A stretch of 64,000 bases of DNA. It comes from a virus. The notes beneath the pieces are model-generated. The model saw nothing but the letters and a program-made list of their open reading frames with translations. It made no database searches and was not told the DNA's origin. The position numbers and the translations under genes were made by a program. Where the stretch lies: positions 128,001-192,000 of IMG/VR virus record IMGVR_UViG_3300012642_000011; one strand, written 5' to 3'. Shown in pieces: positions 2,827-58,183 of this stretch. Every line of letters begins with the position of its first letter. The first letter of the stretch is position 1.

Positions 2827-3648
2827 ATGGAAAAGTATCACATCACAGACAAGGGTGAAGTCAAGACCTGCACTGCACATGTGCGTAAATGCCCCATCAA
2901 TGATGCCCCTATGCACTTTTCAAACAAAGAGGATGCCTACGAACACATTGCCAACACAGTCAATAATAGTGCAATCTTGACAAAAAAGAATGAAAGCATG
3001 ATCTCTCAGAGAGACAAGAAGAAGAAAATTCAGGCTTTTGTTGAACTAAACAAAATATTGGAGAAGTCATCTCGGGGTTTTGGATACCACGTCAGCAATG
3101 ACGGTCTGGAAGAAATCAACCCTGATAAAAGGACAGAGAACACTGACTTCACCTACCTTGGAGGAGGAATGGTCAGAGATGCTTACTATCACCAGAAGAC
3201 CAATCTTGTCTATAAGGTAAATCGTTTCTTCACAGATGAAGAATCCAGAAAATTTTCGCTTCACGAGAAGAGGGCCTATGACTCCTTGAATCATGAAGAA
3301 CTATGGAAGAAGAAAGTCCGCTATGCTGACACTGACTTCATTGAAACCCCTGATGGACGAATTTTCGTTACACAGGAAGCTATTTTGGCTGAAAATCTAG
3401 GATACCATCCCACCAAGTTCAGCAGCGCCCATGATGAGATGATGTCTCATTCATCAGGAAAAATAGGTGAGATAATGGGATTCTTGAAGGACAATGGGAT
3501 CACTGATCTTCAGATGGGGAATGTGGTCTATGACAAGAATAAAGATGAGATCATTCTCATTGACTGCCTCCCTATTGAAGATGACCTGTTGAAAAAAGTT
3601 CGAAAAGAGAATGACAAGGCGTGGGAGGATTCAGGAATGGATTATTGA
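2827..3648 (+). CDS. protein with shared N-terminal Cys module (KYHI...C...C...HF.NK.DA); C-terminal domain unassigned
   Basis: 273-aa track ORF; N-terminus MEKYHITDKGEVKTCTAHVRKCPINDAPMHFSNKEDAYEHI matches the module seen on 7 other ORFs in this window. Confidence 0.7.
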   Translation: MEKYHITDKGEVKTCTAHVRKCPINDAPMHFSNKEDAYEHIANTVNNSAILTKKNESMISQRDKKKKIQAFVELNKILEKSSRGFGYHVSNDGLEEINPDKRTENTDFTYLGGGMVRDAYYHQKTNLVYKVNRFFTDEESRKFSLHEKRAYDSLNHEELWKKKVRYADTDFIETPDGRIFVTQEAILAENLGYHPTKFSSAHDEMMSHSSGKIGEIMGFLKDNGITDLQMGNVVYDKNKDEIILIDCLPIEDDLLKKVRKENDKAWEDSGMDY

Positions 3649-4230: not shown

Positions 4231-4692
4231 ATGCAGTCGAGAGTCATGGAAATCAACTTGGGTGACCACTATGGAGACGGTCACGGACGTTACGAAACCT
4301 TCAAGGTTACCATCAGTGGTGACGATGTTTCCAATGAGAAACTGAAGTCGTCCTATGACTCCATGTGCAAGAAGATGGGAGTAGATCTCGATTCCATCCT
4401 TTACACCAAGGATGAGAGTTACTACAGTACCTTCATGTCAAAGAGTAGCCTTCAGAATGCCCTTGACAATGGCTTCGATGGAGACATTGACTTCAGTGAT
4501 GATGAGGTGCCCGGAATTTATGTGGATAAGGACTCTGAGAAGAGAACAATTAGTTCCCTTGACCTTCTCATGTTCTATGTTGGCTCAGAAATTGAAAATT
4601 TCTCTTGGAACCTTCACGAAAAGGAGAAGGAGCCAGATCTTCTCAATGTCATCGGAGCCGTCTATGGGTATGAGTTCTACATGCACGTGTGA
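4231..4692 (+). CDS. hypothetical acidic protein
   Basis: in-frame part of track ORF 4177..4692; ATG at 4231 after gagaaagaggtctaaag. Confidence 0.55.
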   Translation: MQSRVMEINLGDHYGDGHGRYETFKVTISGDDVSNEKLKSSYDSMCKKMGVDLDSILYTKDESYYSTFMSKSSLQNALDNGFDGDIDFSDDEVPGIYVDKDSEKRTISSLDLLMFYVGSEIENFSWNLHEKEKEPDLLNVIGAVYGYEFYMHV

Positions 4693-9836: not shown

Positions 9837-9908
9837 GCTTCTGTAGGTTAACGGTAAACCAGATGACTCTAAATCATTGACATGCGGGTTCGACTCCCGT
9901 CAGAAGCA
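9837..9908 (+). tRNA. suppressor-type tRNA (anticodon CUA, reads UAG)
   Basis: acceptor gcttctg/cagaagc; D-stem ggtt/aacc; anticodon stem gatga/tcatt loop ctCTAaa (U33, A37); T-arm gcggg-ttcgact-cccgt; no alternative register gives a 5-bp stem. Confidence 0.7.
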
Positions 9909-10010
9909 CGAAGATAAAGTAAATCTCTTAAGTTGAGTTTACTCTTTCTTCTGTCTACTTGACAACACAAGAAGTATAGTGTACAATAGAAGACAACAAC
10001 AACAAAATAT

Positions 10011-10305: not shown

Positions 10306-10689
10306 CAGGAGAGGCAGCGGTAATGATTCCGAGCGCATCAACATGATGAACAATCAAGCGGATGCGAAAAGGAATTATATCTCGTAGTCAAGACTCCACT
10401 AACCCCCGAAACGCTTTGGCGGGTAATTCAAAGCGACATGGGTATAAATTGTTGAATCCATGGACTAGCGGGCAATTCAACGTTGGCTTCCATAAGAAGT
10501 TTTGTCTGCATTACTGCCACCATGTTGGTATGTCATTGGGGGCACCTGACTTATGGCGAAAGGTGCCCGACAACTCAATATGTGATGTAAAGAGTGTTGA
10601 CAAGCATATGAAGATATACGATCATTACATTATATAAGGAATCAAGAGGATTGAAAGATTTCAATCTGATAGCATTCTTCACATAATTA

Positions 10690-10767
10690 TGGTGACTATA
10701 GCTCAATTGGTTAGAGCGCCGGTTTGTGGTACCGGAGGTTGCGAGTTCGAGGCTCGTTAGTCACCCC
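10690..10767 (+). tRNA. tRNA-His (anticodon GUG), G-1 and CCA encoded
   Basis: G(-1)+gtgacta/tagtcac+C73+cca; anticodon stem ccggt/accgg loop ttGTGgt; strongly resembles enterobacterial tRNA-His in overall sequence. Confidence 0.85.
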
Positions 10768-10770
10768 AAC

Positions 10771-10812
10771 TAAAGAGATCAGGGATGTAATCCATCCCTG
10801 ATCTCTTTTCTT
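10771..10812 (+). terminator. rho-independent terminator after tRNA-His
   Basis: hairpin aaagagatcagggatg-taat-ccatccctgatctcttt followed by tcttgttt. Confidence 0.6.
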
Positions 10813-10949
10813 GTTTAGGCAATTTTATGTCAGCAAGAATCATGTTGACATTGCCTTCTTTCTCTCTGTCAGAGAGCAATATGCTATAATCACGAAGAGT
10901 GTAACACAACGGAGAATCATGGTTAGCAAGAAACGAAAGGTAACCCCTC

Positions 10950-11360
10950 ATGAGTGAAGTAGAACTCCATATAGGAAAACTTACTTTGTATCACGATGCA
11001 ATGGCATCATCCAAGACAATGGACGATGCTATCAAGGAGATCCTTGGAGAAACAGTGCATTCTGAAGATTATAATTCATGGTTAGAACGTTTCTACGAAG
11101 TAGAATATAATAAGCCCAACAGGGAGTATATCGTTGATGAGGCCAGAAGCCGAATCTATAAGACAGAAAATAAAGAAGTCTTCCTGCCAGTCAATAAGAG
11201 TTATAATATGAGCAGCAATGCAGATGGAACTATTGACTACGTTGCTTACTTCTACAACGGGGTAACTCATCTTGATGCGGAATTGCAGAACGGATTAAAA
11301 GAGATCAACGATCAAGAAATAAAAACATCTTTTGAAAAAGGAGAATTGTATTCAATATGA
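10950..11360 (+). CDS. hypothetical protein, paralog A of a tandem pair
   Basis: 136-aa track ORF; shares TxDDAIxEiLG and NADGTxxxxxxFYxG motifs with the next ORF; stop overlaps next start (ATGA). Confidence 0.6.
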   Translation: MSEVELHIGKLTLYHDAMASSKTMDDAIKEILGETVHSEDYNSWLERFYEVEYNKPNREYIVDEARSRIYKTENKEVFLPVNKSYNMSSNADGTIDYVAYFYNGVTHLDAELQNGLKEINDQEIKTSFEKGELYSI

Positions 11361-32174: not shown

Positions 32175-32801
32175 ATGATACAAGAGGGAGTTGAAATGAT
32201 GAGTCAGAGAATGCGTATTGGTGAAGCGTGTGAGTACTTGGGTATTCACCAGCAAACTATGAGAAAATATGTAAAACAGGGAAAAATTCCCTGCTCCTAC
32301 AATGACGCAGGACAAAGAATCTTCCTTCTTGAAGACCTCAAAAAATTCATTGGCGAACCCGTATCGCAAGAAAAATACTCCCCAATCTTCTATGTTCGAT
32401 CATCAGACGGAGACAAAAAACTCATCCAAAAACAGATCGAACTTCTCACCGAAAAATATGGTGAGCACCCCGTCATCAAAGACACGGGATCAGGACTCAA
32501 CGAAAAAAGACAAGGACTACAAAGACTCATAAAACTCGCCAAGAAAAGAGAAATATCCCACATCTACATCACCCACCAAGACCGACTCACCCGATTCGGA
32601 TTCACCTACCTACAAGAACTCTTCACAGCATACGGAGTAGAAATCCACACTCTCAACCCAAAGAAAAACAACACACCACACGAAGAACTCATGCAAGACT
32701 TCATGAGCCTCATCGCAAGTTTCAGCGGACGCTTCTACAGAATGAGAAGCAAAGAAAACCAAAGAAAACTCCTTGAAAAAGCAGCAAAAGAGGTCGCATG
32801 A
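32175..32801 (+). CDS. tnpA: IS607-type transposase TnpA (MerR-like HTH + serine recombinase catalytic domain)
   Basis: 208 aa; HTH MRIGEACEYLGIHQQTMRKYVKQGKIP; catalytic IFYVRSSDGD and THQDRLTRFG. Confidence 0.8.
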   Translation: MIQEGVEMMSQRMRIGEACEYLGIHQQTMRKYVKQGKIPCSYNDAGQRIFLLEDLKKFIGEPVSQEKYSPIFYVRSSDGDKKLIQKQIELLTEKYGEHPVIKDTGSGLNEKRQGLQRLIKLAKKREISHIYITHQDRLTRFGFTYLQELFTAYGVEIHTLNPKKNNTPHEELMQDFMSLIASFSGRFYRMRSKENQRKLLEKAAKEVA

Positions 32802-34372
32802 AAAACAGCATCTATCGTGGACTCACCCTACCCCTCCAAGAATACTACCGAATTATAAGAGGGAAGAAAAACTCGGAGTACTCACCTGTCAACAATCAAG
32901 AAGTCATGGACAAGATCGGTAAAACCATAACGATTGTAAAAGACTGCGTAAAATGGGGGATCAACACCCCACAAAATGCAGAATACTACAAAGCCATCAA
33001 CAGCGGAGCACACCCAGAAACCGGCGAACAATTACCCACTAACCTCAATGAGCAAGCCCGCATTCTCAATCATAAGTACCAAGAATACTTACCGGAAGAA
33101 ATGAAAGGGAAATCCATTGTTGAACGTATGATCGGTCACAATCTTCTCGAACTTGAAAGCGCCTTTGGGAAGAAACTCAAAGCAATACATGGAGAAGAAT
33201 ACATTTCTCAAGGATGGGCGCGAACCATCAATAGCGTACTCCCACAACCCAGCGCAAAAATTAACATTGGTAGCACGAACAATGTCTACTCTTCCCAAAA
33301 AGTCGAGGAAAATAAAATTATTCTCGACATGATCTGCTACGATAACTGGTATCGACTTATTTTTACAATTCCTGAGAATTATCAAAAGACCGACTACAGT
33401 AAGATCTCAAAACCGTTGATTACGCTGAACGATCAAGGCGAGATGAAGTTCTATTTCAGTTTTGAATATGATCGTTATTATCCTGAAATCAGCGATCAGT
33501 ATGTTATTGGTGTTGATGTGGGCGTTGTAAAACCAATTGTTCTTAGCGTTATTGAGATCAAAACTGGAAGAATCGTTGCTTCTCATGAATCAACGCCACT
33601 GATTGATTCTCTGGTTCACGATATCAAGCAGACTCAGGAGCAGATCACGAACCTCTACAAAAAGGTTGAGAAATATATTAAAAATGGCGATTACCCTGCT
33701 TATGATAGAGCAATGACCGAAATCCAGCAGGAGCGTTTGGGATTGTCTCGTAAGAGGAAGGAGATGGCGAAGCGTATTGGTCAGTTTGTATCGGATATTG
33801 CTTGTGCTTGGGGCGATCCTGTGATTGCTGTTGAGGATCTTGGTTGGGTTCGCAATACGATGCAGAATGGTCGTTGGAATCGTGGTGAGATTGTGAATTG
33901 GGTGGAGCATTATGCGAATCTTGACGGGAGACTGTGTTATCGTGTGAATGCTGCTCATACTTCATCCACGTGTTGTCTTTGTGGTAGTAAGGGTTATTTT
34001 TCATCTGGTCGGGTTTTCAATTGTTCTTCTTGCGGTGAGAGAATCGATAGAGATGAAAATGCTGCGGCAAATATTGGCAAAAGAGTGATCAATAGCGCCC
34101 TGAAATCAAGCAAAACGAGAAAGAAAAGAAGGAAAGAAAAATGCATTACTGAACAATCTAAGCGTAGGTCACCAGTGAATAGGGGCGCTAAGAATCGCCC
34201 CACTCCTGTTCGTCCTGCTAAGAAGAAAAAGAAAACAGTTCTGAAAAGACAAGAAAAAGTAAAAGATTTTGGTTCCTGTACTAAGGGTAGTATGGGGTTC
34301 GAGAGAGCAGATTCTTCAAAGAACACCCTCACGGGTAACCACAACAATCTTACCATTACTCAAAAAGAGTAA
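32798..34372 (+). CDS. tnpB: TnpB (OrfB, RuvC-like nuclease with C-terminal zinc finger)
   Basis: 524 aa; C-terminus CCLCGSKGYFSSGRVFNCSSCGERIDRDENAAANIG is the TnpB/Cas12-like zinc finger + RuvC-III motif. Confidence 0.85.
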   Translation: MKNSIYRGLTLPLQEYYRIIRGKKNSEYSPVNNQEVMDKIGKTITIVKDCVKWGINTPQNAEYYKAINSGAHPETGEQLPTNLNEQARILNHKYQEYLPEEMKGKSIVERMIGHNLLELESAFGKKLKAIHGEEYISQGWARTINSVLPQPSAKINIGSTNNVYSSQKVEENKIILDMICYDNWYRLIFTIPENYQKTDYSKISKPLITLNDQGEMKFYFSFEYDRYYPEISDQYVIGVDVGVVKPIVLSVIEIKTGRIVASHESTPLIDSLVHDIKQTQEQITNLYKKVEKYIKNGDYPAYDRAMTEIQQERLGLSRKRKEMAKRIGQFVSDIACAWGDPVIAVEDLGWVRNTMQNGRWNRGEIVNWVEHYANLDGRLCYRVNAAHTSSTCCLCGSKGYFSSGRVFNCSSCGERIDRDENAAANIGKRVINSALKSSKTRKKRRKEKCITEQSKRRSPVNRGAKNRPTPVRPAKKKKKTVLKRQEKVKDFGSCTKGSMGFERADSSKNTLTGNHNNLTITQKE

Positions 34373-34709
34373 AGAAAAGATTGACCCTATAAGTTTCACC
34401 TTTGGAGAGAATCAAGATGGAAGCCCTGTTCATATTGTGACCACATCTTTCAACACTTATAGTGGTCCTTCTAGGATCAGGAAGAACAATGCGTTTTTCA
34501 ACGTCAATACTGGTGATTCTGATAATGACGATTCCCCTTTGAATCGCAAAGATATCGCTATAGAAGAATTGCTGATCTGGATCAAGCAGGGAAATCACAA
34601 GAAGGCAAAGAATGATTGCACAGAGAATGACTTCAAGATGATCCCGTGGTAATCACACATCTACGTAAGATGCTTCTCAAGAGATTCTTGAACTCAACAG
34701 GGAAGCAAG

Positions 34710-34738
34710 TTGACATGATGGCATACATCTGATATGAT
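34710..34738 (+). promoter_or_regulatory. sigma70-type promoter (TTGACA-17-TATGAT)
   Basis: ttgaca 34710-34715, tatgat 34733-34738; drives the tRNA-like gene at 34822. Confidence 0.5.
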
Positions 34739-34821
34739 GATGTCATCAACACGTTCAGAACGTATTTGATGTTTGATAACTTAATTGCCGATCTTTCTTA
34801 CACATTATTGTAAGAAACACT

Positions 34822-34896
34822 TAGGGTATGGAATTAATGGTATTTCGTCGTACTCAAGGTTATTACGAAGATACGGGTTCGATTCCCGTTACTCTA
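34822..34896 (+). tRNA. tRNA-like gene with 11-nt anticodon loop (non-canonical)
   Basis: acceptor tagggta/tactcta (7/7 with one G:U), D-stem gaat/attt, T-arm acggg-ttcgatt-cccgt, 75 nt; the only stem in the anticodon region is tcgta/tacga enclosing ctcaaggttat (11 nt). Confidence 0.4.
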
Positions 34897-35031
34897 TCTC
34901 GTCCCGATGCCTCTGGTCTCTTTGGAGATTATGCACACTTCGTGGTCACTGGTGGCACTTGATCAATGCTGTCAAACCTGATCTATGAGTAGTCATAGGT
35001 TGGACTTCAACTTGTTCATTAGAAGGTATTC

Positions 35032-35060
35032 TTGACATGGTGAAAACTGTGTGGTATACT
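35032..35060 (+). promoter_or_regulatory. sigma70-type promoter (TTGACA-17-TGgTATACT)
   Basis: ttgaca 35032-35037, tatact 35055-35060; transcript enters a hairpin-rich leader then the Sec-like tRNA. Confidence 0.5.
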
Positions 35061-35137
35061 TGATGATGTACAGTGGTTGTCCCGCTCTCCATGTGAGATG
35101 TCGGGCATCTTGGTACCTATGAAAACATGGGTACCAC

Positions 35138-35220
35138 GTGCGCTTGCTGAGTAGATGGTTCTGCTGGCGGTCTGCAAAACCGTTGCGAAAGCCGAAGGGG
35201 TTCGATTCTCCCAAGCGCGT
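35138..35220 (+). tRNA. tRNA-Sec-like / allo-tRNA-type fold carrying a Cys GCA anticodon
   Basis: 9-bp acceptor gtgcgcttg/caagcgcgt (two G:U); 6-bp D-stem agtaga/tctgct with 4-nt loop tggt; 6-bp anticodon stem ggcggt/accgtt loop ctGCAaa; 12-nt V-arm gcgaaagccgaa; 4-bp T-stem gggg/ctcc with ttcgatt. Confidence 0.55.
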
Positions 35221-35266
35221 CGAGATTGTAGTACATTGAGTGGTCTTGATGTACTACAATTATAAT

Positions 35267-35340
35267 GGCACTGTGGCTGAATGGTTTTAGGCAACAGATT
35301 GCAAACCTGTTTTATGTGGGTTCAAATCCCATCGGTGCCT
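35267..35340 (+). tRNA. tRNA-Cys (anticodon GCA), canonical 7/5 fold
   Basis: acceptor ggcactg/cggtgcc (one U:G); anticodon stem acaga/cctgt (A31 opposite C39) with enterobacterial-type loop ttGCAaa; T-arm gtggg-ttcaaat-cccat; preceded by 12-bp inverted repeat attgtagtacat/atgtactacaat. Confidence 0.75.
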
Positions 35341-35372
35341 CAAGAATAGAAAAGCGAACAAAGGTGATTACA

Positions 35373-35702
35373 GTGGCTATCTGCTATGCTTGCAAAAGAG
35401 AACTCAAGCCTGAGAATGAAAACATGACTACTGATTATCAGTTCGACAATGCTCTATGGATTGGTCTCTTTGGCGGTTATGGCATGTTCATTGAGTCAAA
35501 GTCATTCAATCAGTACTCTGACAAAGATCATGTAATCAAAGCAGACATGGAAGCAGTGCTATGTCATGATTGCGCTCATGAGGCTTGCGAGAAACTCCCA
35601 TGGCTTGAGAGCCTCATTGACACTCACAACGCTCATTCGCACACGATTGAATATATGAAGGAAAACCCTGACCACTATGGTTGGGATTATGATGAAGATT
35701 GA
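35373..35702 (+). CDS. small zinc-ribbon protein (CYAC...CHDC)
   Basis: in-frame part of track ORF 35265..35702 downstream of tRNA-Cys; GTG at 35373 after aaggtg; alternative ATG at 35424. Confidence 0.45.
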   Translation: MAICYACKRELKPENENMTTDYQFDNALWIGLFGGYGMFIESKSFNQYSDKDHVIKADMEAVLCHDCAHEACEKLPWLESLIDTHNAHSHTIEYMKENPDHYGWDYDED

Positions 35703-35869
35703 TTTTGTCACCCTCGAACAGCACACCCGTCCTTAAGGATTGCTCCACGGTCATTATCATATAGATATCTTGAGAATGTCTTTTGGCATGATGGTATCAT
35801 AAATGAAATGGGATCAATTCTGTACACGGTCTTGCATGTCTAGTCAACTATGGACACAATGATCACATC

Positions 35870-36373
35870 ATGAACAACTTATTGAAAGGTACTTCCATGA
35901 AAGTCATGATCTATACAGGCTACTTTGACTACGAGACCTTTGCGGATGGGAATAATAACATCTTCAAGGACAGGGCAAGAGTCTTTGATATCTCCACTGA
36001 TGAAAAGTTTAGAGCAGCAAAAGTTTTCTTCATCAAGCAGGAACTCCTCCAGTGGGATTACTATTTTGCCTACAGTGACATCAATTTAGATAAGCCTGAG
36101 GAACCTTCATTCACAATGAAAGAGATGAAGGATACTGACTTGGTGGCAGAGAGAACTAAAGAGTATGAACTTGCTATGGAAGAATACGAAGCAAGTCAGA
36201 GAAAGTACCGTGAGCGTGTATCGTTTTTCTCAAGGCTACAAAATGATGATGTGCATGAGAATGATGATCATATCATCGATGAGGTCTTTGACATGATCAT
36301 GGAAAAAGATAAGAATCAGGATTCTCATTACCCTGCAGTGTACTTCAAAGACCTTGAAGATCTGTCACTTTGA
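35870..36373 (+). CDS. hypothetical acidic protein
   Basis: 167-aa track ORF (alternative ATG at 35897). Confidence 0.5.
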   Translation: MNNLLKGTSMKVMIYTGYFDYETFADGNNNIFKDRARVFDISTDEKFRAAKVFFIKQELLQWDYYFAYSDINLDKPEEPSFTMKEMKDTDLVAERTKEYELAMEEYEASQRKYRERVSFFSRLQNDDVHENDDHIIDEVFDMIMEKDKNQDSHYPAVYFKDLEDLSL

Positions 36374-36471
36374 TTACAAGAGACCTAGAACGATGTTAAC
36401 AATGTCATCGTTCTAGGTCTCTTGTTTCTTTAGAGATTATTCTATTGAATAAGAAGTTATGAGGTACCATC

Positions 36472-37536
36472 ATGAAGAAATACCACATCAATCTCAAAGG
36501 TAATGTGATGCCATGCGAGGCTGATGTCAAGCCTTGCAAATTCGGATCTGCAGATCACTTTGAAAGCAAAAAGGCAGCACAACAATCATTTGAAGATGCT
36601 GCAGAGAAAACGCCTTTAAAGAATAGAGAAAAATTCAAAGATCAATCAGATTATTTTGCCTCTATAGCCCAAGATTCCCTTGATTCTGAATATGTGATGG
36701 TAGGAGATAAAAATCGTGATGTTTTGAGTTTCTCATCTGCTGAACTTGCTAAAGGGAACAGTAAGATCGTGGCTGATTATATGAAATGGTATACAGAGCC
36801 ATATGAAGGAGATCATGATGATGACTATGATGACTATACACCTCCTCAAGAACTCTCTGTGACATGCTACAATCCCCGTGGACCACACTTCTCTGACGAT
36901 CACTATGCTAACTACTACATTGATGACAATGGGCAGAAGATCATTGTGGATTATGGATTCTCAGAGTTCGATGAAAATGAGAATCAACCTTATGTTGGTA
37001 CAGAAGATCAGTGGAAACGTGATATCAAGCATCATGCTTACATGGGTTCTGTGTTGTCAGAAAGAACTATAAAACTGCAACGTCGATCAGGTACTCTTCC
37101 TGTATTTCCTGCAGGAGAAAAGAACCCTCTTTTAGATAAGACTGTCTTGGAAGAGCCAGAAGGAAGAAATCCATTCAAGGGTCCAAAGGACAATTATCCT
37201 CACACACGCTTTCTTTCTGTTGATGGCATAAGAGTAGCGGCTGTTCAATATGGTCTTGACGAGGATGGCAAAACACCAAAGATTTGGTCTGCAGAGACAA
37301 GGAAAGAGTACAGAAATCAAGGTTACATGACCAAACTGTATAATATGCTTGCAGAGGATTACAACGTTCCTCATGTGACATCAGGAGGATCATACACTCC
37401 CGATGGTTATGCTTATATGAAGAGATATCACGATGCTCACGGTCAGACAGAGGGGAAAATCAACTTCCCCTACTATCAAGGAGAAAATAAGTTTTCCTTT
37501 ATACACGATTGGGTTGATAGAGGAGAATTTAATTGA
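36472..37536 (+). CDS. N-module protein, 354 aa, possible acetyltransferase-like C-terminus
   Basis: N-term MKKYHINLKGNVMPCEADVKPCKFGSADHFESKKAAQQSFE; C-term YRNQGYMTKLYNMLAE resembles the C-termini of 17735/18793. Confidence 0.7.
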   Translation: MKKYHINLKGNVMPCEADVKPCKFGSADHFESKKAAQQSFEDAAEKTPLKNREKFKDQSDYFASIAQDSLDSEYVMVGDKNRDVLSFSSAELAKGNSKIVADYMKWYTEPYEGDHDDDYDDYTPPQELSVTCYNPRGPHFSDDHYANYYIDDNGQKIIVDYGFSEFDENENQPYVGTEDQWKRDIKHHAYMGSVLSERTIKLQRRSGTLPVFPAGEKNPLLDKTVLEEPEGRNPFKGPKDNYPHTRFLSVDGIRVAAVQYGLDEDGKTPKIWSAETRKEYRNQGYMTKLYNMLAEDYNVPHVTSGGSYTPDGYAYMKRYHDAHGQTEGKINFPYYQGENKFSFIHDWVDRGEFN

Positions 37537-38277: not shown

Positions 38278-38548
38278 CTACAGCAAACATGCTGAACAAG
38301 TGTCACGGAGTTAGAATGTGCGCAACGGGTCAGGGGCGGAAGTCAGCATCCCACGCACATAATGGCTGGTGTGATAACCAAGAGACCACTGAAAAGTGGT
38401 CTCTTGTGTTTTGAATCTTTCTTTTCATTCAGTAAACAGAATCATCACCTTCCCGAGATGTGTACAAAAGTATACACCAAAAAGCATAAAACAATGCAGT
38501 TACGTTGATAACATAGTAATGATAAGCAAATACAATAGGAGTATAAAA

Positions 38549-45708: not shown

Positions 45709-46103
45709 TTCTTTCTCCTTTGTTTTTGTTCTGCTGGCGATGGAGACCAAAACCCAGCAAGGCATTCATAACCAAGTTTTCTTGATCAACACTAATATAT
45801 CAAAGTGACTACTAAGAAATCGACTAAAGTGACAATCACCACAATATCTTGGTTTTTAGTGATATCAAACCGACAATTCCTTTTGATATGATTATGTATC
45901 AGTTTTTGTATCCAAAAAGAAAGGGGAAATAAAATGGATAATCTCCCTATGACAGATACCGAAGAGTGGGGAATCGAAGTCGCAAAGGAAATAGATGCCA
46001 TGATTCGAGTGCAATCCTCATTCAATATGTAATTGAGCCTCTCGACAACCTCTTATACTTTGCCATCTTCTTTAGAGAAAAAGACATCCATCAAGGAGGA
46101 ATA

Positions 46104-47558
46104 ATGGCAAAGAAATACCACATTAGCGACAATGGAGAAGTCGTAGAATGCAGAGCAAACAAGATCCCCTGCAAAAAACAGAACTTCAACTCACAACAAG
46201 AAGCAGAAGAGCATCTTGAATCTACTTTGGCTTCACCATTGTCAAAGTTCTCTCCATCAGGAAGCAGACAAAACGCACACCTGTCAAAAATGAGAGACAA
46301 GTATGGCACAGACCATATTCACTCCTATACTATGTCTTCTATTGACAAGCCAACCAATGAGTTGCTGTCTTCATTGTCCTCTGTAGGAAGCCCTCTCATT
46401 GTTGGTGGATCAGTCAGGGATTCTTTGGTAGGGTCAGAATCTAAAGACATAGACATAGAAGTACACAAAACATCCATGAATGCGTTGATTAAACACCTGA
46501 AATCATCTGGATATAACGTTAACGAAGTTGGGAAACAATTCGGTGTGCTCAAAGTTACAGGACATGGCTTAGAAGAAACAGATATCTCTGTTCCCCGTAA
46601 AGAAAATAAGGTAGGTTCAGGACATAGGTCATTCAATACTTCATTTGATCCCGAGATGAGCATTACAGAGGCTGCAGAGCGAAGAGATTTCACTTTCAAT
46701 GCCATCATGTACGATCATCAGAACAATGTCCTCATTGATCCAACTGGAGGTAAAGAAGACCTTGAAAACAAAGTTATGAGACATGTTTCTGACAAGTTCA
46801 CTGAAGATCCCTTACGAGTTCTCAGGGGAGCGCAATTTGCAACACGATTCAATATGTCTTATCACCCCGATACAGCAAAGATCTCAAAACAGATCAGGCA
46901 TGAGTACAATGATCTCTCCAAAGAGAGGTTGCGAGAAGAATGGGGTAAATTCCTAGAAAAAGGAAAAAATCCTCGATCTGGAATAAAAGCGCTTCAAGAT
47001 TCTGGGTGGGATGACATGACTACTGGATTGAAAGAATCCCTCTCATCTGAGCATACTCAACAATCTCTTGAGAGAGTTACAGAACAACCTAAAGAATACA
47101 GAGCATTGCTAGGATCTGCTGCTATCATGACAAACATGGAGAAGAAGAACAGAGAAAAATTCTCCACAACTTCTTTAATGTCTAAATCAGATGAAAAAGT
47201 CGCCATGGCCCTTTGTGATCTTCAAGATTCCCAATGGGAGAGCACCTATGATAGAAAAGTTGCAGCGAAGTCATTCCCCAAAGGAGTCGATTTTGAACTT
47301 GTACACAGGTATGCAACTGTGACAGACAACAGCGTTCTCAAAGATCACAGCCGGAAAGCAATTAGTGAAGGACTAGGGAAAGAGCCTGAGAAGGACTTGA
47401 TAACAGGATCAGACATCATGATGAAGACAGATCGCACACCTGGGCCTTGGATGGCACAACTTCTCAATGAGATCAGAGACAACCAGTACAAGAATAACTG
47501 GACTGACAGAAAAGATGCTTTAAACTACATGAACAAGAGACTGGAACAGATGACATAA
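46104..47558 (+). CDS. cca: CCA-adding tRNA nucleotidyltransferase fused to the shared N-terminal Cys module
   Basis: head-domain motifs LIVGGSVRDSLVGSESKDIDIEV, RRDFTFNAIMYD, DPLRVLRGAQFATRF; N-term MAKKYHISDNGEVVECRANKIPCKKQNFNSQQEAEEHLE; RBS ggagg; track ORF 45966.. trimmed to this ATG. Confidence 0.8.
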   Translation: MAKKYHISDNGEVVECRANKIPCKKQNFNSQQEAEEHLESTLASPLSKFSPSGSRQNAHLSKMRDKYGTDHIHSYTMSSIDKPTNELLSSLSSVGSPLIVGGSVRDSLVGSESKDIDIEVHKTSMNALIKHLKSSGYNVNEVGKQFGVLKVTGHGLEETDISVPRKENKVGSGHRSFNTSFDPEMSITEAAERRDFTFNAIMYDHQNNVLIDPTGGKEDLENKVMRHVSDKFTEDPLRVLRGAQFATRFNMSYHPDTAKISKQIRHEYNDLSKERLREEWGKFLEKGKNPRSGIKALQDSGWDDMTTGLKESLSSEHTQQSLERVTEQPKEYRALLGSAAIMTNMEKKNREKFSTTSLMSKSDEKVAMALCDLQDSQWESTYDRKVAAKSFPKGVDFELVHRYATVTDNSVLKDHSRKAISEGLGKEPEKDLITGSDIMMKTDRTPGPWMAQLLNEIRDNQYKNNWTDRKDALNYMNKRLEQMT

Positions 47559-51336: not shown

Positions 51337-51636
51337 TGATGTTACACAACTGAATATGTAATCCATCAGCAGCCTTGAGAAAGGCTGCTGACATGGGCTT
51401 GACAGGTTTCGATTGGCAACGAAAAAAGTCAGATGCAAGTCACCTTTGGGTAAGAGGTGTAAAAAAGATCCAAAAAAATAATTGCAAACTCTGCAAAGAA
51501 CGATTTCGCCCTAGCTGCGTGATCCATCAGTGTGGTAACTCTGGTTTCTGGTCCACACTGGTGTCGCTTTAAGAAACCACCATCATTCCTTCGCCATAGG
51601 GGAATGAAATGGTACAATATGGCAACATCTATGAAA

Positions 51637-51738
51637 GGGTCTGCCATCGCTTTCATAGATTACTCAATGGCAGTAAACTTGTGAACGAATCTTTCTTTGG
51701 AAATTGTCAAGACCCCGGTTCGATTCCGGGCAGGTCCA
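51637..51738 (+). ncRNA. over-long tRNA-like element (about 102 nt)
   Basis: 5' gggtctg pairs 7/7 (one G:U) with 3' caggtcc after a canonical T-arm cccgg-ttcgatt-ccggg; contains a D-arm-like tact-caatggc-agta; no canonical anticodon arm; about 28 nt longer than a type I tRNA. Confidence 0.35.
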
Positions 51739-51768
51739 CTCTCAATTTAAGGTATTGGTGATGAAAAG

Positions 51769-52851: not shown

Positions 52852-52915
52852 TAGAATAGAAGAACAAGAACCGGATCAAGAAAATATTCTGATCCAATGA
52901 AACATTGGAGTGCAT

Positions 52916-54397
52916 ATGAGTAACTACGACTTCGCGCACCTTCATGTTCACTCACACGGGTCTTTGTTGGATGGATTTTCCAAGCCTGAAGAGTATATTG
53001 AAGCTGCCTTGAAAAACGGACAGAAAAGCCTTGGGTTGACAGACCACGGAAACAACTTCCTCACCTATGAGTTCATCAAATTAGCAAATGACAAAGGCAT
53101 TCGACCCATTCCAGGATGTGAGTTCTATGTTGCTCCGCAAAACCCTGAGGGAGCATTCTGTCAAGAGAGAGTATTCTATGGCACACCATCTCAGAAAAAA
53201 GATGATGTTTCTGCCAATGGCGCATATCTTCACCTGACTGTATGGGCTATAAATAATACAGGATTGAACAATCTCTTCAAACTTTCTACTCTTTCCTATG
53301 ACCCGAATAGACAGTTCATGAACACCAAGAAGCCCAGAATTGATTTCGATCTTCTTGCTGAGTACTCTGAAGGTCTCGTTGTCTCTACAGGATGCCCCTC
53401 ATCTGAGGTATCTACACGACTTCGACTTGGACAAGAAAAAGAGGCATATGAGTATGCTTCACGTCTAAAAGATGTGTTTGGTGACAGACTCTTCGTTGAA
53501 ATCATGGATCACAAGATGACTATTGATCTTGAAAAATCACTTCTTCCTCAGCAAATGGAACTTTCTCGTAAACTAGGCATACCTCTTCTTGCCACCAATG
53601 ACGCACACTATGCATACAAAGAAAATGCTAAACCTCACGAAGAAATGCTTGCTCTACAAACAGGAAGTAAGATGAGTGAACTTCCTTATGATGAAGATGG
53701 TGGAACTCGTTTTGCCTTCAATGGCAGCGGTTACTACCTTAAGTCATCGGAGGAAATGTATCACCTCTTCCCTGACCATGATTTCCCAAATGCCAACAAG
53801 AACACTCTACTCATTGCGGAGATGGCGTCAGACATCAAGTTGCAATACAACCCGCATTTGAAACCCACGCCTTTCATTCCTGAAGGATTTGATAGTAGTT
53901 ATTCCTACTATCGACACCTCATTAAAAAGGGATTGAAAGAAAGGTATGGCAATCATCCTGCACACATCAAAGAAGAAGCAATGAGAAGAGCAAAGTACGA
54001 GATGGAAGTTATTTACTCTTCTGATTTTGTGGATTACATGCTAGTTGTAGAATCTTATTTGAACTGGAGTAAGGAAAAATTCTCTACTAGAAATTCAGAA
54101 GGAAAGATTATGGCATCTAGTATCGGAGCGGGAAGAGGATCTGTGGGTGGATCAATCCATGCTTACTGCCTCGGAATCTCAGAAGTTGATCCTATTCGCT
54201 TTGGATTGTTCTTTGAAAGGTTCTTGTCAGCAGGACGTGGACCTGAATACATGATTGAATTTAATGATGGAAGCCTTGAAAAACACGTTGCTTCCAACTC
54301 TTTCCTTGCTCAAAGAAACAAGGAAGAGCGTGAAAAAATGTACGTTCACCAGTTAAACGTTGGGGACACAGTATACTACGAACAGGAGCATTGCTGA
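52916..54397 (+). CDS. dnaE: DNA polymerase III alpha (DnaE) N-terminal piece: PHP domain + first palm segment
   Basis: FAHLHVHSHGSLLDG PHP motif; ends ...GRGSVGGSIHAYCLGISEVDPIRFGLFFERFL just before where the catalytic PDxDxDF motif should follow; ATG at 52916 (track uses GTG 52910). Confidence 0.8.
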   Translation: MSNYDFAHLHVHSHGSLLDGFSKPEEYIEAALKNGQKSLGLTDHGNNFLTYEFIKLANDKGIRPIPGCEFYVAPQNPEGAFCQERVFYGTPSQKKDDVSANGAYLHLTVWAINNTGLNNLFKLSTLSYDPNRQFMNTKKPRIDFDLLAEYSEGLVVSTGCPSSEVSTRLRLGQEKEAYEYASRLKDVFGDRLFVEIMDHKMTIDLEKSLLPQQMELSRKLGIPLLATNDAHYAYKENAKPHEEMLALQTGSKMSELPYDEDGGTRFAFNGSGYYLKSSEEMYHLFPDHDFPNANKNTLLIAEMASDIKLQYNPHLKPTPFIPEGFDSSYSYYRHLIKKGLKERYGNHPAHIKEEAMRRAKYEMEVIYSSDFVDYMLVVESYLNWSKEKFSTRNSEGKIMASSIGAGRGSVGGSIHAYCLGISEVDPIRFGLFFERFLSAGRGPEYMIEFNDGSLEKHVASNSFLAQRNKEEREKMYVHQLNVGDTVYYEQEHC

Positions 54398-54398
54398 G

Positions 54399-55487
54399 AT
54401 GAGCGATAACTACATGGAAATCTACAAGAAATACCGCCCTAATCGTTGGGAAGATGTTATTGGTCAGGACAAGACTGTTAAAAGCCTGAAGGTATCTCTT
54501 CTCAAAGACAGCCTTCCTACAGGATACGGCTTCTTCGGAAAAAGAGGAACGGGAAAGACCACTCTTGCACTCTTGTTAGCAAAAGCGGTCAACTGTGAGA
54601 AGATGTCTTCTACAGGCAACCCTTGTAATGAATGTTCTTCATGTGTCAGCATTGACTTTAACAATAACCCAGATGTGGTTTATGAGTCCATGGCTAACAA
54701 TGGTGGCGTAGAAGACGTAAGAAAGATGGTGGAAAAGGCAAACTTTGCACCTCTTTATAAGAAAAGAGTATTCATCTTTGATGAGGTTCATAATCTTTCG
54801 AAGGCTGCATTTGAATCTCTTCTGATTCCCCTTGAATCCCCCACGACAAAAGCCCTTTTCATCCTTTGCTCAACCGATCCCCAGAAGATCCCTGAGACAA
54901 TTTTCTCTCGTATCAAGAAGAGGAATCTCATGCTAGTAAGCAATGAGACTATGAGAAAGAAAGTCGAGGAGATTCTTGAGAAAGAGGGAGAGAGTCTTTC
55001 TGACGATCAAATTGATTCCATTGTCCGACAGGGAAAAGGATCTGTCAGAGATACTTTGAACATTCTTGAATCAGAACTCATTGATGTAAATGATGATGAC
55101 GATGATGAAGAAGAAGTAGACTTTTATAGTCTGTTGATTCACTCTGTCAGTGAACATGACATCAGTAAGACTTATAGGACAATTGCAGAAGCAACTGCTG
55201 CTGGTGTCTCAGGAGATGACCTTGCAGAACAGTTGTTCTCGGATGTGCGAGATCTGATGATCATTGCATCAGGGGGAGATAGGGAATTGACTCCTAACCT
55301 TCCAGAAGCAGACTATACGGCAGTGATTAAGGGCATGATGGGATTGGGAGGATTGAATATGGTGGCACAGAGCATTGGCGAAGCCATCAGCAAAATGGGA
55401 ATGAATGTAGATTCAAGAATCATGCTAGAAGTTGCTCTAGGCAACTCTATCAGAAAACTTAAAGCGGCTAAAGCAAAGAGGGGATGA
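54399..55487 (+). CDS. dnaX: DNA polymerase III gamma/tau-like clamp-loader ATPase (DnaX)
   Basis: YKKYRPNRWEDVIGQ, Walker A FGKRGTGKTT, Zn module CNECSSC, Walker B FIFDEVH, sensor SRI; sits between the two dnaE pieces. Confidence 0.8.
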   Translation: MSDNYMEIYKKYRPNRWEDVIGQDKTVKSLKVSLLKDSLPTGYGFFGKRGTGKTTLALLLAKAVNCEKMSSTGNPCNECSSCVSIDFNNNPDVVYESMANNGGVEDVRKMVEKANFAPLYKKRVFIFDEVHNLSKAAFESLLIPLESPTTKALFILCSTDPQKIPETIFSRIKKRNLMLVSNETMRKKVEEILEKEGESLSDDQIDSIVRQGKGSVRDTLNILESELIDVNDDDDDEEEVDFYSLLIHSVSEHDISKTYRTIAEATAAGVSGDDLAEQLFSDVRDLMIIASGGDRELTPNLPEADYTAVIKGMMGLGGLNMVAQSIGEAISKMGMNVDSRIMLEVALGNSIRKLKAAKAKRG

Positions 55488-55495
55488 GATAATCA

Positions 55496-58183
55496 ATGAC
55501 TACAAACAATACCAAGACGATTACTAAGATCATTCCTCTTAGCCCTGGCTCTCCCCCTGACATTGATTCCGATTTCTCTCAAAAGAGTAGGGATCATGCT
55601 ATTCATCATGTTACTGAGAAATATGGAAGAGATAAAGTGTGCAGCATTGTCACCTTTGGAACCTTGAAGTCTAAGGGTGCTTTCAAATCCATGTGTACAA
55701 TTTATGATATCCCCTTCTCTACAGCCAACAAAATCACATCATTGATCCCAAATCCGCAAGAAGGTGTGCAGTTCGATCTAAGAGACGCATATAATCCCGA
55801 TGCGGATAGGTATGCCGAGGCGGAAGACTTCCGAAACGCTCTTGCTGACGACGATAGAATGAAGGATATTTTTGATGGTGCAGTCCAGATTGAAGGTAGG
55901 AACAGGACAACAGGAATCCATGCTGCTGGTATTGTCATTTCCCAGCAGCCTTTGATTGACTCAATCCCCCTTCAAGTTGTCAAGAAGGAAGACAAAGTAG
56001 TAAGCCAATGGGTTTATAAAGATCTTGAAAAAATGGGATTGATCAAGATGGACTTCCTTGGCCTTGAAACTATTGACATTATCCAAAGAGCAGTTGAGTA
56101 TGTTTTGAAGAATAACAAGGACATCATTTCCATGATTGATCTTATTCATGGTCCTATGGATGATCCTAAGGTTTATGATCTTTTCCAGAAAGGCAACACT
56201 ATCGGAATTTTCCAGTTTGGATCATCCATGGTGATAGACCTTCTGAAGAAAATCATGCCTACAAAGTTTGAGCATCTTTCCGCTACCACTGCTATCGCAA
56301 GACCTGGCCCTATGGGAATGGATTCTCATAACAAGTATGCTGCTCGAAAGAATGGGTTTGAGGAGATTGACTTCATCCACCCTGACTTCGATAATAGCCC
56401 CCTAGAAAAGATTCTAGGGGAGACTTATGGCCTCTTGGTGTATCAGGAGCAGGTCATGCAGATCGCCTCTGAGATCGCAGGTATGACGCTTCAGCAAGGT
56501 GATGATCTTCGAAGCGCCATGGGCAAGAAGAAGATTGCTGTTATGGAGAGCATGAAGCCTCTCTTCTTTGAAGGATCAATCAAAAATGGGTATTCTGAGG
56601 AAGCAGTTTCTCTTCTTTGGGATATCATTGCAGAAATGGCTAAGTACGGGTTCAATAAAGCGCACTCTGTATCCTACGCTATGAACTCATACCAATCTGC
56701 TTACTTGAAAGTCCATTATCCTGTTGAATTCATGGCTTCCTTGATCACACAGGCTACATCTAACAATGCTAAGAAGGATAAAGTTCTTGAGTATTTGAAA
56801 GAATGCAATCGCATGGGGATCAAGGTATTGACTGCAGATGTCAACTCATCTGATGTCTTTGTCTCCCCAGATTTTGCCAACGGCGGAAACAACATCATCT
56901 TCGGCTTGTCTGCATTAAGAGATGTTTCAGAAACCAATGCTGAAATCATTGTCAATGAAAGAGAGAAAAATGGTAAGTACACTTCACCTCAAGACTTCAT
57001 CAATAGATGCCACGCTCTTGGGATAAGAACAGCAAAAGTGTATGAATCTATTGCGTTATCTGGCGGATTTGATGGTTTTGGAATGTCACGAAAAGGAATT
57101 GTCGAAGCAATTCCAGCCATGATTAATTCTGCAAAGAAAAAGAATTCTTCTGGCGATTCTCTATTTGATATCTTTGAGGATCTAAATGAGATTGGAAATA
57201 TAAATATATCCGATGAAGAATATGATTTTGTTGAAAAATTAAAACTTGAGGCAAATACTGTTGGTCTATACTTGACAGGTCATCCACTGGAAAAGGTTGG
57301 CATTTCTTCAAGACTCAACACAATTGATTCCATCTTCAAACGGAACAAAAAGGATTCATACAATATTCTTTCCTCCATCACCAGTATTGAAGTCAAGCAA
57401 TCACGAGGTGGCGGAAACAAGGGCATCATCGTTGGTCTTGATGATGGCACTGGATACATGAACGCACGACTATCTAAGGAAGCAGTTAAATCAATCGAGA
57501 AATGGGAGGCAAGAGAAAAGCTAAAGAGTCTTTATTGCAAAGGAAGCAATGCTATCCCCGACTATCTTAAAGTACAAATCCTTAATCAGCATGTTCCTGC
57601 TAGACCGCCACTGGAAGTCAATGCTACGTACATTGCTAAAGTGTCCTATAACAGAGGATGGGGCGATGATGATTACAGGGCAACAATTGAATGGATCTTC
57701 CCTCTCAGGCTTTCCAAAGATGGAGAACTACCATTGAGGATGAGGTTTGAAATCAATAAAGACAACCATGAGAAAATGAAGAAAGCCTATGCTGGTCTTC
57801 CCAAAGTTATCTCTGGGAAGATAGAAGGCAATTCTCCAATCTTTAAGGCTGTTCACAAAGGCATTGACAATATTCCTGTATCTTCAGGTGACCTGCCCTA
57901 TTTCCAGGCACTTCAAGATACTAAGAGATTGTATATGGAGAATAAGACAACCACAGATCCACGAGTATGGCCTCCACAGGAGATCAGCGACAGGGTGAAA
58001 GATATTGTCAAAAAAGGAACAGTCTACTTTGAGGACCAAGAGGAAGCAATCGAATCACTTGAATATAAAGATTCAGGATATTCCACTGAGAAGTCACAAA
58101 GAGTAGAGATGGGGATTGAAAAATATCTTGGTCATAACTCTTATGATTTTGGTGTTCCGAAAACTTTCTTAAGAGAAGAGTAA
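55496..58183 (+). CDS. dnaE: DNA polymerase III alpha (DnaE) C-terminal piece: catalytic palm/fingers/beta-binding/OB
   Basis: begins ...SPPDIDSDF...VTEKYGRDKVCSIVTFGT; RTTGIHAAGIVI; MDFLGLETI; KYGFNKAHSVSYA, all collinear with bacterial DnaE after the FERFL segment. Confidence 0.85.
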   Translation: MTTNNTKTITKIIPLSPGSPPDIDSDFSQKSRDHAIHHVTEKYGRDKVCSIVTFGTLKSKGAFKSMCTIYDIPFSTANKITSLIPNPQEGVQFDLRDAYNPDADRYAEAEDFRNALADDDRMKDIFDGAVQIEGRNRTTGIHAAGIVISQQPLIDSIPLQVVKKEDKVVSQWVYKDLEKMGLIKMDFLGLETIDIIQRAVEYVLKNNKDIISMIDLIHGPMDDPKVYDLFQKGNTIGIFQFGSSMVIDLLKKIMPTKFEHLSATTAIARPGPMGMDSHNKYAARKNGFEEIDFIHPDFDNSPLEKILGETYGLLVYQEQVMQIASEIAGMTLQQGDDLRSAMGKKKIAVMESMKPLFFEGSIKNGYSEEAVSLLWDIIAEMAKYGFNKAHSVSYAMNSYQSAYLKVHYPVEFMASLITQATSNNAKKDKVLEYLKECNRMGIKVLTADVNSSDVFVSPDFANGGNNIIFGLSALRDVSETNAEIIVNEREKNGKYTSPQDFINRCHALGIRTAKVYESIALSGGFDGFGMSRKGIVEAIPAMINSAKKKNSSGDSLFDIFEDLNEIGNINISDEEYDFVEKLKLEANTVGLYLTGHPLEKVGISSRLNTIDSIFKRNKKDSYNILSSITSIEVKQSRGGGNKGIIVGLDDGTGYMNARLSKEAVKSIEKWEAREKLKSLYCKGSNAIPDYLKVQILNQHVPARPPLEVNATYIAKVSYNRGWGDDDYRATIEWIFPLRLSKDGELPLRMRFEINKDNHEKMKKAYAGLPKVISGKIEGNSPIFKAVHKGIDNIPVSSGDLPYFQALQDTKRLYMENKTTTDPRVWPPQEISDRVKDIVKKGTVYFEDQEEAIESLEYKDSGYSTEKSQRVEMGIEKYLGHNSYDFGVPKTFLREE

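Follow-up and report, generated by a model that had tools for sequence, protein, structure and literature searches.

A cysteine-anticodon tRNA gene with a probable 8/4 fold in the tRNA array of an uncultivated huge phage

Selenocysteine transfer RNA (tRNA-Sec) has a 13-bp acceptor branch, divided 8/5 between acceptor and T stems in bacteria and 9/4 in archaea and eukaryotes, and carries a UCA anticodon, with rare exceptions. A tRNA-Sec-like cloverleaf is also found in selC* tRNA-Cys, which has an 8-bp acceptor stem, longer D and anticodon stems, U73 and a GCA anticodon (Mukai et al., Nucleic Acids Res 2017, PMC5389517). These tRNAs are cysteinylated and active in translation, and their genes occur in anaerobic bacteria with full Sec machinery, often beside selB* and cysS* (PMC5389517). 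The delta-proteobacterial 8/4 form contains a bulged A51a, and some selC* genes carry UCA (PMC5389517). Phage tRNA clusters are known to contain 8/4 tRNA-Ser and tRNA-His (PMC5389517). A phage-borne 8/4 tRNA-Cys was not reported in the literature that we searched, a search that left the supplements of PMC5389517 outside. Here we analyze a non-canonical tRNA gene with a GCA anticodon in a 64,000-nt stretch of an uncultivated huge phage (IMG/VR record IMGVR_UViG_3300012642_000011, positions 128,001 to 192,000; hereafter the window, with coordinates counted from its first nucleotide). The sequence suggests that this gene is probably a cysteine-accepting elongator tRNA on an 8/4 scaffold, reading UGC and UGU. 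Its parts are as follows.

35139-35220, + strand: non-canonical tRNA(GCA), in the favoured 8/4 register (ARAGORN, Rfam models, folding energies)
35139-35146 with 35212-35219, + strand: acceptor stem in the 8/4 register, first pair U-G
35147-35149, + strand: connector CUG
35150-35155 with 35160-35165, + strand: 6-bp D stem, AGUAGA/UCUGCU, one U-G pair; loop UGGU at 35156-35159
35166-35171 with 35179-35184, + strand: 6-bp anticodon stem, GGCGGU/ACCGUU, two G-U pairs; loop CUGCAAA
35185-35196, + strand: 12-nt variable region, GCGAAAGCCGAA, in which a mini-hairpin, GCGAAAGC, is possible (2-bp stem, GAAA cap)
35197-35200 with 35208-35211, + strand: 4-bp T stem, GGGG/CUCC, one G-U pair; T loop UUCGAUU at 35201-35207
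35220, + strand: discriminator U in the 8/4 register

ARAGORN calls a tRNA-Cys with anticodon GCA (35174-35176) at 35139-35221. The Rfam tRNA-Sec model (RF01852) covers 35138-35220 at full length; its score, 48.9 bits, exceeds the gathering score of 47 (E 8.8e-7, whole window), and this is the sole gene among the 36 tRNA genes of the window for which tRNA-Sec is the best model of the tRNA clan. An earlier note on this DNA had described an RNA that resembles tRNA-Sec or allo-tRNA and cannot adopt a normal 7/5 fold, with a 6-bp D stem and 4-nt loop, a 6-bp anticodon stem, a 4-bp T stem and a GCA anticodon; the coordinates above and the Rfam score bear out each of these features. A 7/5 fold requires an A35196-C35212 mismatch and a 4-nt connector, which is exactly what ARAGORN draws, and its energy is 2.5 kcal/mol worse than that of the 8/4 fold (-25.4 compared with -27.9 kcal/mol). 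Without constraints, the minimum-energy fold also has a long acceptor helix, with D and T arms of 6 and 4 bp. A preferred 7/5 cloverleaf, which the earlier note had named as evidence that would overturn its proposal, thus appears in neither the folding energies nor the minimum-energy fold. All four helices are intact, and G18 G19 and the consensus bases of the T and anticodon loops are present. The variable region has the 12 nt previously claimed for a long arm, but its only stem is 2 bp and, as read from the sequence, it is too short to resemble a Ser or Sec arm.

The window gene shares with selC* tRNA-Cys a Sec-like cloverleaf that combines U73 (in the 8/4 register) with GCA. It differs in its variable arm, which is 12 nt long compared with 22-26 nt in probable selC*-type 8/5 genes from metagenomes, and in the absence of an A51a bulge. 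It also lies in a phage tRNA cluster, followed by a hairpin, a tRNA-Cys and a gene for a 109-aa protein, with no sel or cysS gene nearby. With 8/4 allo-tRNAs and the phage 8/4 tRNA-Ser and tRNA-His it shares a probable 12-bp branch split 8/4, a long D stem with a tetraloop and an occurrence in phage tRNA clusters. Those tRNAs are Ser or His in identity, or combine unusual anticodons with a long arm; the window gene carries Cys identity elements, and its extended variable region is short. On this comparison the gene appears selC*-like in carrying Cys identity on a Sec-like body, and like the phage allo-type tRNAs in its 8/4 branch, D arm and array.

The acceptor helix contains seven Watson-Crick pairs, from G35140-C35218 to G35146-C35212, and two optional terminal wobble pairs, U35139-G35219 (the eighth) and G35138-U35220 (the ninth). 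The resulting 7/4, 8/4 and 9/4 registers have energies of -27.9, -27.9 and -26.1 kcal/mol. The 8/4 reading retains the usual 12-bp acceptor branch. The 9-bp acceptor stem of the earlier note finds no support: this register is the least stable, with a ninth pair that costs +1.8 kcal/mol, and the relatives described below are 8/4. The Rfam tRNA-Sec model does align the gene as 9/4 with no mismatched pair, but the 13-bp branch is possible only through the two terminal wobble pairs. We regard 9/4 as unlikely and as the least supported of the three possible registers.

Flanking nucleotides of the 34 canonical tRNAs in the window provide a register test that is split, with the 5' side favoring 7/4 and the 3' side 8/4. 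These genes have T at -1 in 25 cases and G at +1 in 26. A C directly follows the discriminator in 34/34, which in the non-canonical gene fits only U35220 followed by C35221 (8/4); a 7/4 register would put T at position 74, seen in 0/34 other tRNAs. Rough flank likelihoods are 0.008 and 0.005 for 7/4 and 8/4, respectively, and 0.001 for 9/4. Full CCA is encoded by only four of the 34, consistent with the phage having its own CCA-adding enzyme. Two relatives, L151 and L159, have the acceptor pattern GCGCTTAG...CTAAGTGC T, compared with T GCGCTTG C...CAAGCGC G T in the window. From this comparison, the window acceptor looks as if one internal pair had been lost and a new top U-G pair had restored 12 bp, leaving U as the discriminator. 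If the gene is functional, 8/4 is the most likely mature form, a judgment we hold with fair but not high confidence, and 7/4 with discriminator G is the main alternative register.

We identified relatives by pattern scans for the anticodon stem-loop and a T arm with a long spacer, which returned three kinds of tRNA(GCA). The first is a large metagenomic set with an 8/5 branch (13 bp), a 22-26-nt variable arm, U73 and encoded CCA; these genes probably match the published description of selC* tRNA-Cys. The second kind, found as many large-phage genes, combines an ordinary 7/5 branch with a lengthened variable arm. The third is a small set with an 8/4 branch, 6-bp D and anticodon stems, an 8-14-nt variable region and a T after the acceptor strand. 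Its 8/4 members are L071 (142-kb viral contig), L151 (125-kb viral contig), L159, L171, L175, L253 and L226, and a further locus, L239, carries a 9/3 version. Variable regions in this set often have no stem, and some are as short as 8-9 nt.

In all seven 8/4 relatives a T follows the 8-bp acceptor strand, and in L071 and L226 CCA comes directly after this T. None of the seven needs a ninth acceptor pair, and in L071 one is impossible (T stands opposite T and CCA is encoded). The members with enough flanking DNA (L071, L151, L171, L253 and L226) sit in dense tRNA arrays, as does L239. The four larger loci (L071, L226, L239 and L253) show no tRNA(GCA) other than the non-canonical gene in the DNA examined. 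tRNA-Sec is the best Rfam model for the window gene and for L071, L171, L175, L226 and L239 (44.9-55.6 bits); at E up to 1e-4 the Sec model matched neither L151 nor L159, and the scan did not extend to L253. The genes at L151 535-616 and L226 519-596 also receive no call from ARAGORN. The 9/3 tRNA(GCA) of L239 (4621-4703) encodes CCA and scores 49.7 bits on the Rfam tRNA-Sec model. The same array (Ga0114918_10010796, 14 tRNAs) contains a tRNA-Ser(GCT) at 3169-3254 for which tRNA-Sec is again the best Rfam model (43.7 bits) and which is probably an 8/4 tRNA-Ser.

The window gene is 59-71% identical to the 8/4 set, 65-68% to some of the large-phage 7/5 genes and 51-58% to the selC*-type set. Its identity to the canonical tRNA-Cys beside it is 53%, which indicates that it is not a recent copy of that gene. 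A short-arm pattern scan of one genome each from 185,579 species returned a single match, in a metagenome-assembled genome and inside a tRNA array, for which a 7/5 fold is available by our own reading. Two further candidates for the 8/4 set, L148 and L237, were rejected, since a 7/5 fold suits them as well and is the one found in L216 and L149, which are close relatives of theirs, and L132, L140, L167 and L208 were left out for their irregular T stems.

The large-phage 7/5 long-arm tRNA-Cys genes (L120, L145, L146, L245 and others) share with the window gene the anticodon stem-loop, U73 and location in phage arrays, and L145, L146 and L245 have the same GAAA-capped mini-hairpin in the variable region. 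They differ in having a normal 7/5 branch, a 3-4-bp D stem and the general tRNA model as the best Rfam match. Such tRNA-Cys(GCA) genes with an 11-18-nt variable arm, often a clear stem-loop, are present in many large-phage contigs: L120 and about 18 identical copies (IMG/VR 3300045988, 94-192 kb), L123, L137, L145-L150, L165, L190, L201 and L216. This shape is class-II-like, which is not usual for tRNA-Cys. In L137, a 178-kb viral contig, a GOLLD RNA (10518-10951, 176 bits) adjoins the phage tRNA array.

We built a family covariance model (R1) from six genes of the 8/4 set, with the window gene left out. This model finds the window gene at 35140-35219 with 56.1 bits (E 9e-14); the next best score in the window is 35 bits, the value for the canonical tRNA-Cys. 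We also prepared an ungapped alignment (A4) of eight sequences, including the window gene, cut at positions fixed by the three loops. Under the 8/4 structure, 99.5% of its cells form a standard pair, a share that drops to about 45% if the 3' partners are displaced by one to three columns, and 18 of the 24 pairs change on both sides; 0/500 shuffles reach these values. The eighth acceptor pair is present in 8/8 sequences when the window gene is taken in the 8/4 register (GC in seven, UG in one), and the rival fifth T-stem pair (49:65) in 1/8. The D stem covaries at five of its six pairs. A full-tRNA alignment made with MAFFT was dropped; it misaligned L226 and shifted the window gene by one register. 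We consider it reasonably probable, from these sequence comparisons, that the window gene belongs to a small lineage of 8/4 tRNA(GCA) genes in large-phage tRNA arrays.

The resemblance to bacterial tRNA-Sec (selC, RF01852) extends to the 6-bp D stem and 4-nt loop, the 6-bp anticodon stem, the extended acceptor, the extra arm and a score over the cut-off. The gene differs in having GCA rather than UCA, U (or C) rather than G as discriminator, a branch that is probably of 12 rather than 13 bp and a short arm, and in lacking both EF-Tu-rejecting pairs and nearby Sec genes. A GCA anticodon cannot read UGA, and TGA serves as the predominant stop codon in the window (25/34 ORFs). In ORFs (open reading frames) of at least 330 aa in the window, we found no Pfam match to the SelA, SelB, SelD, cysteinyl-tRNA synthetase (CysRS) or seryl-tRNA synthetase (SerRS) families. 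The gene could still be a true tRNA-Sec-type adaptor, with a 13-bp 9/4 branch, that is serylated, converted to Sec and delivered to Cys codons by a SelB-like factor, and the mismatch-free 9/4 alignment to the Rfam model favors such a role. Yet the ninth pair is energetically unfavorable and is absent or impossible in relatives, the 9/4 discriminator would be C instead of G, the variable arm is short, and no selA, selB or selD match was found in the ORFs searched. In tRNA-Sec, rejection of EF-Tu depends on the pairs C7-G66, G49-U65 and C50-G64 (PMC9976931); the corresponding acceptor/T junction pairs of the window gene are G-C, G-C and G-C. We regard a Sec adaptor as extremely unlikely. The gene is most likely not a tRNA-Sec, and a Sec annotation should be avoided.

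Charging with serine would make the gene an allo-tRNA that SerRS recognizes through the extra arm, so that UGC and UGU would partly be read as serine. Most allo-tRNAs, with G73 or U73, are presumed serine acceptors, and SerRS tolerates 8/4 and 9/3 branches (PMC5389517); the D arm of the window gene is allo- or Sec-like. SerRS, however, recognizes its tRNAs mainly by a long variable arm and, in tRNA-Sec, most strongly by G73 (PMC9976931). The window variable region has 12 nt, in which a GAAA loop caps a 2-bp stem, and that of some relatives is stemless at 8-9 nt. GCA and U73 together form the full CysRS identity set, and where the gene is the sole tRNA(GCA) of its array, serine charging would mistranslate every Cys codon read. 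A serine-accepting tRNA is therefore very unlikely. The earlier note had proposed Sec/Ser/Cys miscoding at UGC/UGU, which finds no support in the 2-bp-stem arm, the discriminator U in place of G and the lack of a Sec or synthetase match in the ORFs searched; nothing points to its other suggestion, a non-translational use of a charged Sec-type tRNA.

The major CysRS determinants are U73 and the GCA anticodon (PMC9976931). Both are present in the 8/4 register, and U73 is absent in 7/4 or 9/4. An ordinary Cys role is favored by these two elements together with the short variable region, the G-C junction pairs, the precedent of active selC* tRNA-Cys and the existence of phage 8/4 tRNAs. Ordinary cysteine decoding is further suggested by the loci (L071, L226, L239 and L253) in which such a gene is the only tRNA(GCA).

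The non-canonical gene is followed by a canonical tRNA-Cys 46 nt downstream, within a region that contains the following features.

35032-35060, + strand: sigma-70-type promoter-like site (pattern match, 11/12 matches), with TTGACA at 35032-35037, a 17-nt spacer, TG at 35052-35053 and TATACT at 35055-35060
35075-35136, + strand: leader of about 70 nt with two hairpins, one imperfect (about 35075-35110) and one of 11 bp (35111-35121 with 35126-35136, loop AAAA)
35225-35260, + strand: inter-tRNA hairpin, arms 35225-35236 and 35249-35260 (12/12 complementary), 12-nt loop; about 17 bp in the precursor fold
35267-35340, + strand: canonical 7/5 tRNA-Cys(GCA), 54.6 bits (Rfam), discriminator U at 35340; called by ARAGORN at 35267-35341
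35373-35702: 109-aa CxxC-motif protein, directly after the tRNA-Cys pair, no Pfam hit

The promoter-like site, the hairpin-rich leader of about 70 nt and the adjacent normal tRNA-Cys(GCA) had all been predicted in the earlier note and were found. Its 12-bp perfect palindrome proved to have perfectly complementary arms, but with a 12-nt spacer between them it is a hairpin and not a palindrome, and the two anticodon loops, described as the same, differ (CUGCAAA and UUGCAAA). The same promoter type occurs upstream of at least 13 other tRNA or transfer-messenger RNA (tmRNA) genes in the window. The non-canonical tRNA begins about 79 nt from the -10 element, compared with leaders of 15-55 nt for most window tRNAs, and the 11-bp leader hairpin ends 2 nt before it. 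A 279-nt precursor folds far better than its shuffles (z = -4.35). A site scan found no terminator-like site between the two tRNA genes, and the two are probably transcribed together.

L280 and L281, two strains with about 98% identity to the window, differ from it at 16-18 sites in this region, none of them in either tRNA. For a 96%-identical relative, the contig breaks off 600 nt before reaching the tRNA. Within the leader, L280 and L281 change only at 35122 and 35123, inside the hairpin loop. In the inter-tRNA hairpin, 35236 T>C is accompanied by 35249 A>G, which replaces a T-A with a C-G pair, and L281 also carries 35254 C>T, which turns G-C into G-U. The compensatory change at 35236/35249 indicates that the hairpin is under selection as a structure, and we infer that it may act in precursor folding or processing.

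The downstream CxxC protein has 36 database homologues. Two that were examined in large contigs (L286 3001-3309 and L287 3001-3318) also lie inside phage tRNA arrays, and more distant homologues occur in other tRNA arrays without a Cys tRNA. The L287 array, with 18 tRNAs, includes an unusually long, 82-nt tRNA-Gly(TCC) at 4377-4458, to which the 8/4 Cys family model gives 37.6 bits. An origin of the leader as a duplicate of the downstream ORF start was considered and dropped, with only short matches found (best 18/20 nt, 34914-34933 compared with 35462-35481). Upstream, a tRNA-like gene at 34822-34898 (Rfam tRNA, 44.1 bits) has an anticodon loop that is too long: ARAGORN reports a 4-base anticodon, 'caag', and by eye a 5-bp stem, TCGTA/TACGA, encloses 11 nt. 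This gene has its own promoter-like site (34710-34738, TTGACA-17-TATGAT) and an 84-nt leader, a layout that matches that of the adjacent 8/4 tRNA-Cys.

Several points weigh against a working 8/4 tRNA-Cys, and some of them instead favor a decaying or non-functional paralogue. Here an 8/4 ancestor would have lost its eighth pair and become a 7/4 tRNA with discriminator G, poorly or not charged, while the canonical tRNA-Cys does the work. T35139 and G35140 fit the phage's usual -1/+1 context and hence a 7/4 start. The family model, although built independently of the window gene, also starts it at G35140, with seven pairs, a deletion opposite an orphan C35147 and G35219 in the discriminator column. 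The 7/4 and 8/4 energies are equal. The U1-G72 first pair and 3-nt connector are irregular (relatives have G1-C72 and 2 nt), and the 56 bits of the window gene on the family model compare with 79-99 for the six members, which match by construction, and 50-62 for L226 and L239. Alignment A4 was fitted to the structure and contains only eight sequences, several of them closely related. With a canonical tRNA-Cys 46 nt away, the non-canonical copy could be redundant. Strain conservation is weak evidence: chance alone predicts about 2.4 changes over 158 nt, and observing none has P ~0.09. Charging, EF-Tu binding, expression and the mature ends are all predictions from sequence.

Decay is nevertheless unlikely. 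The four helices and the G18 G19, T-loop and anticodon-loop consensus bases are preserved, the predicted promoter is strong and of the same type as those of working tRNA genes, and the two diverged strains show zero substitutions. A 7/4 tRNA would have the T at position 74 that none of the 34 other tRNAs has, and the U-G pair and U discriminator, which restore 12 bp and U73, look like compensation.

We propose that a cysteine-accepting 8/4 tRNA would be made and used as follows. Transcription from 35032-35060 would yield a precursor with both Cys tRNAs. RNase P and 3' trimming would release each tRNA, probably aided in folding or processing by the leader and the inter-tRNA hairpin, and CCA would be added, perhaps by the phage enzyme encoded at 45966-47558. 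Host CysRS would charge the tRNA through U73 and GCA. EF-Tu would then deliver Cys-tRNA to UGC and UGU codons, a step proposed on the basis of the 12-bp branch and the lack of the tRNA-Sec pairs that reject EF-Tu.

A special-purpose Cys-tRNA is another candidate, either as a back-up that resists a host tRNA-targeting nuclease or as an adaptor set aside for a phage enzyme with a non-translational use of Cys-tRNA. In its favor, the canonical gene and its non-canonical partner probably share a transcription unit, arrays of unrelated phages carry the same scaffold, and the scan of 185,579 species genomes gave only the one short-arm match, in a tRNA array and with a 7/5 fold available. No gene for defence, counter-defence or a Cys-tRNA-using enzyme was identified adjacent to the pair, however, no nuclease targeting tRNA-Cys turned up in the literature searched, and the proposal offers a reason for retention of the scaffold instead of a distinct mechanism. 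We consider it quite improbable. A bolder version holds that large phages maintain a dedicated 8/4 (and 9/3) tRNA(GCA) lineage that is functionally distinct from host tRNA-Cys, whether defence-resistant, Ser/Sec-charged to re-read Cys codons or reserved for a phage factor, and that the pairing is a designed two-adaptor system; this, too, is improbable. High Cys codon use as a reason for two tRNA-Cys genes was ruled out by an ordinary Cys codon content (1.1%). For a cysteine-decoding 8/4 tRNA, our guess is that the altered body lets it escape a host factor that recognizes canonical tRNA-Cys; alternatively, phages may simply have inherited the lineage and tolerate it.

The source phage has a genome of about 332 kb (the same DNA occurs in public metagenome assemblies, in contigs up to 332,269 bp), and exact-protein look-ups recovered identical DNA of this phage from several metagenomes. 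The samples in which it occurs are ERZ27289831, JGI 3300012313 and 3300012292, and SRR1647107, and the 332,269-bp contig is ena:ERZ27289831:k141_11150. It has no close GenBank phage: megablast of 34000-37000 against GenBank phages gave no match, and no phage record exceeds 38% identity to the window DnaE fragment. A search of IMG/VR for loci related through the neighboring 354-aa protein found none. The window has a G+C content of about 41% and encodes 36 tRNA or tRNA-like genes, a tmRNA and a small signal recognition particle (SRP) RNA, all on the + strand, as well as three DUF4379 proteins. Other features of the window are listed below.

32175-32801: tnpA of an IS607-type pair, a serine recombinase (resolvase with MerR-type helix-turn-helix)
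32798-34372: tnpB of the same pair (Cas12f1-like TNB domain), overlapping tnpA
38297-38383, + strand: small SRP RNA, 40.4 bits, right at the gathering score
45966-47558: CCA-adding enzyme
51395-51741, + strand: tmRNA, 107 bits, tag ANSAKNDFALAA
52910-54397: first DnaE ORF, covering the PHP domain and the first part of the NTPase domain
54360-55487: clamp-loader-like AAA+ gene, between the two DnaE ORFs
55496-58183: second DnaE ORF, with the remaining NTPase domain and the fingers

The IS607-type element ends about 450 nt upstream of the non-canonical tRNA cluster, and the DnaE-type polymerase is split over two ORFs (52910-58183). Two further unusual tRNA genes were observed. One, at 2578-2649, has a 6-membered anticodon loop (ARAGORN anticodon 'tt', type unknown). 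The other, at 9837-9909, has a CTA anticodon (amber suppressor) and is labeled 'Pyl' by ARAGORN. Among 34 large window ORFs, 25 end in TGA, eight in TAA and one in TAG, and given the CTA tRNA and the single TAG ending, the phage may read TAG as an amino acid.

Huge-phage papers have inferred selenoprotein synthesis from tRNA-SeC calls (e.g. PMC10747093). Covariance-model pipelines can label genes such as this one tRNA-SeC, and a Sec-model match in a phage can be an 8/4 cysteine tRNA; tRNA-SeC calls in huge phages should thus be treated with caution and are not proof of selenoprotein synthesis. ARAGORN misses two relatives entirely, which implies that phage tRNA repertoires are under-counted. 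Allo-type scaffolds serve genetic code expansion, for which a compact 8/4 tRNA of natural origin that carries Cys identity elements is a candidate part. For phage biology, the gene would add Cys to Ser and His as identities of phage 8/4 tRNAs. The scaffold appears repeatedly in tRNA arrays of unrelated phages, in some of which no other tRNA(GCA) was observed. The occurrence of probable 8/4 and canonical 7/5 tRNA-Cys in one operon would provide a clean natural pair for asking why phages keep non-canonical tRNA bodies.

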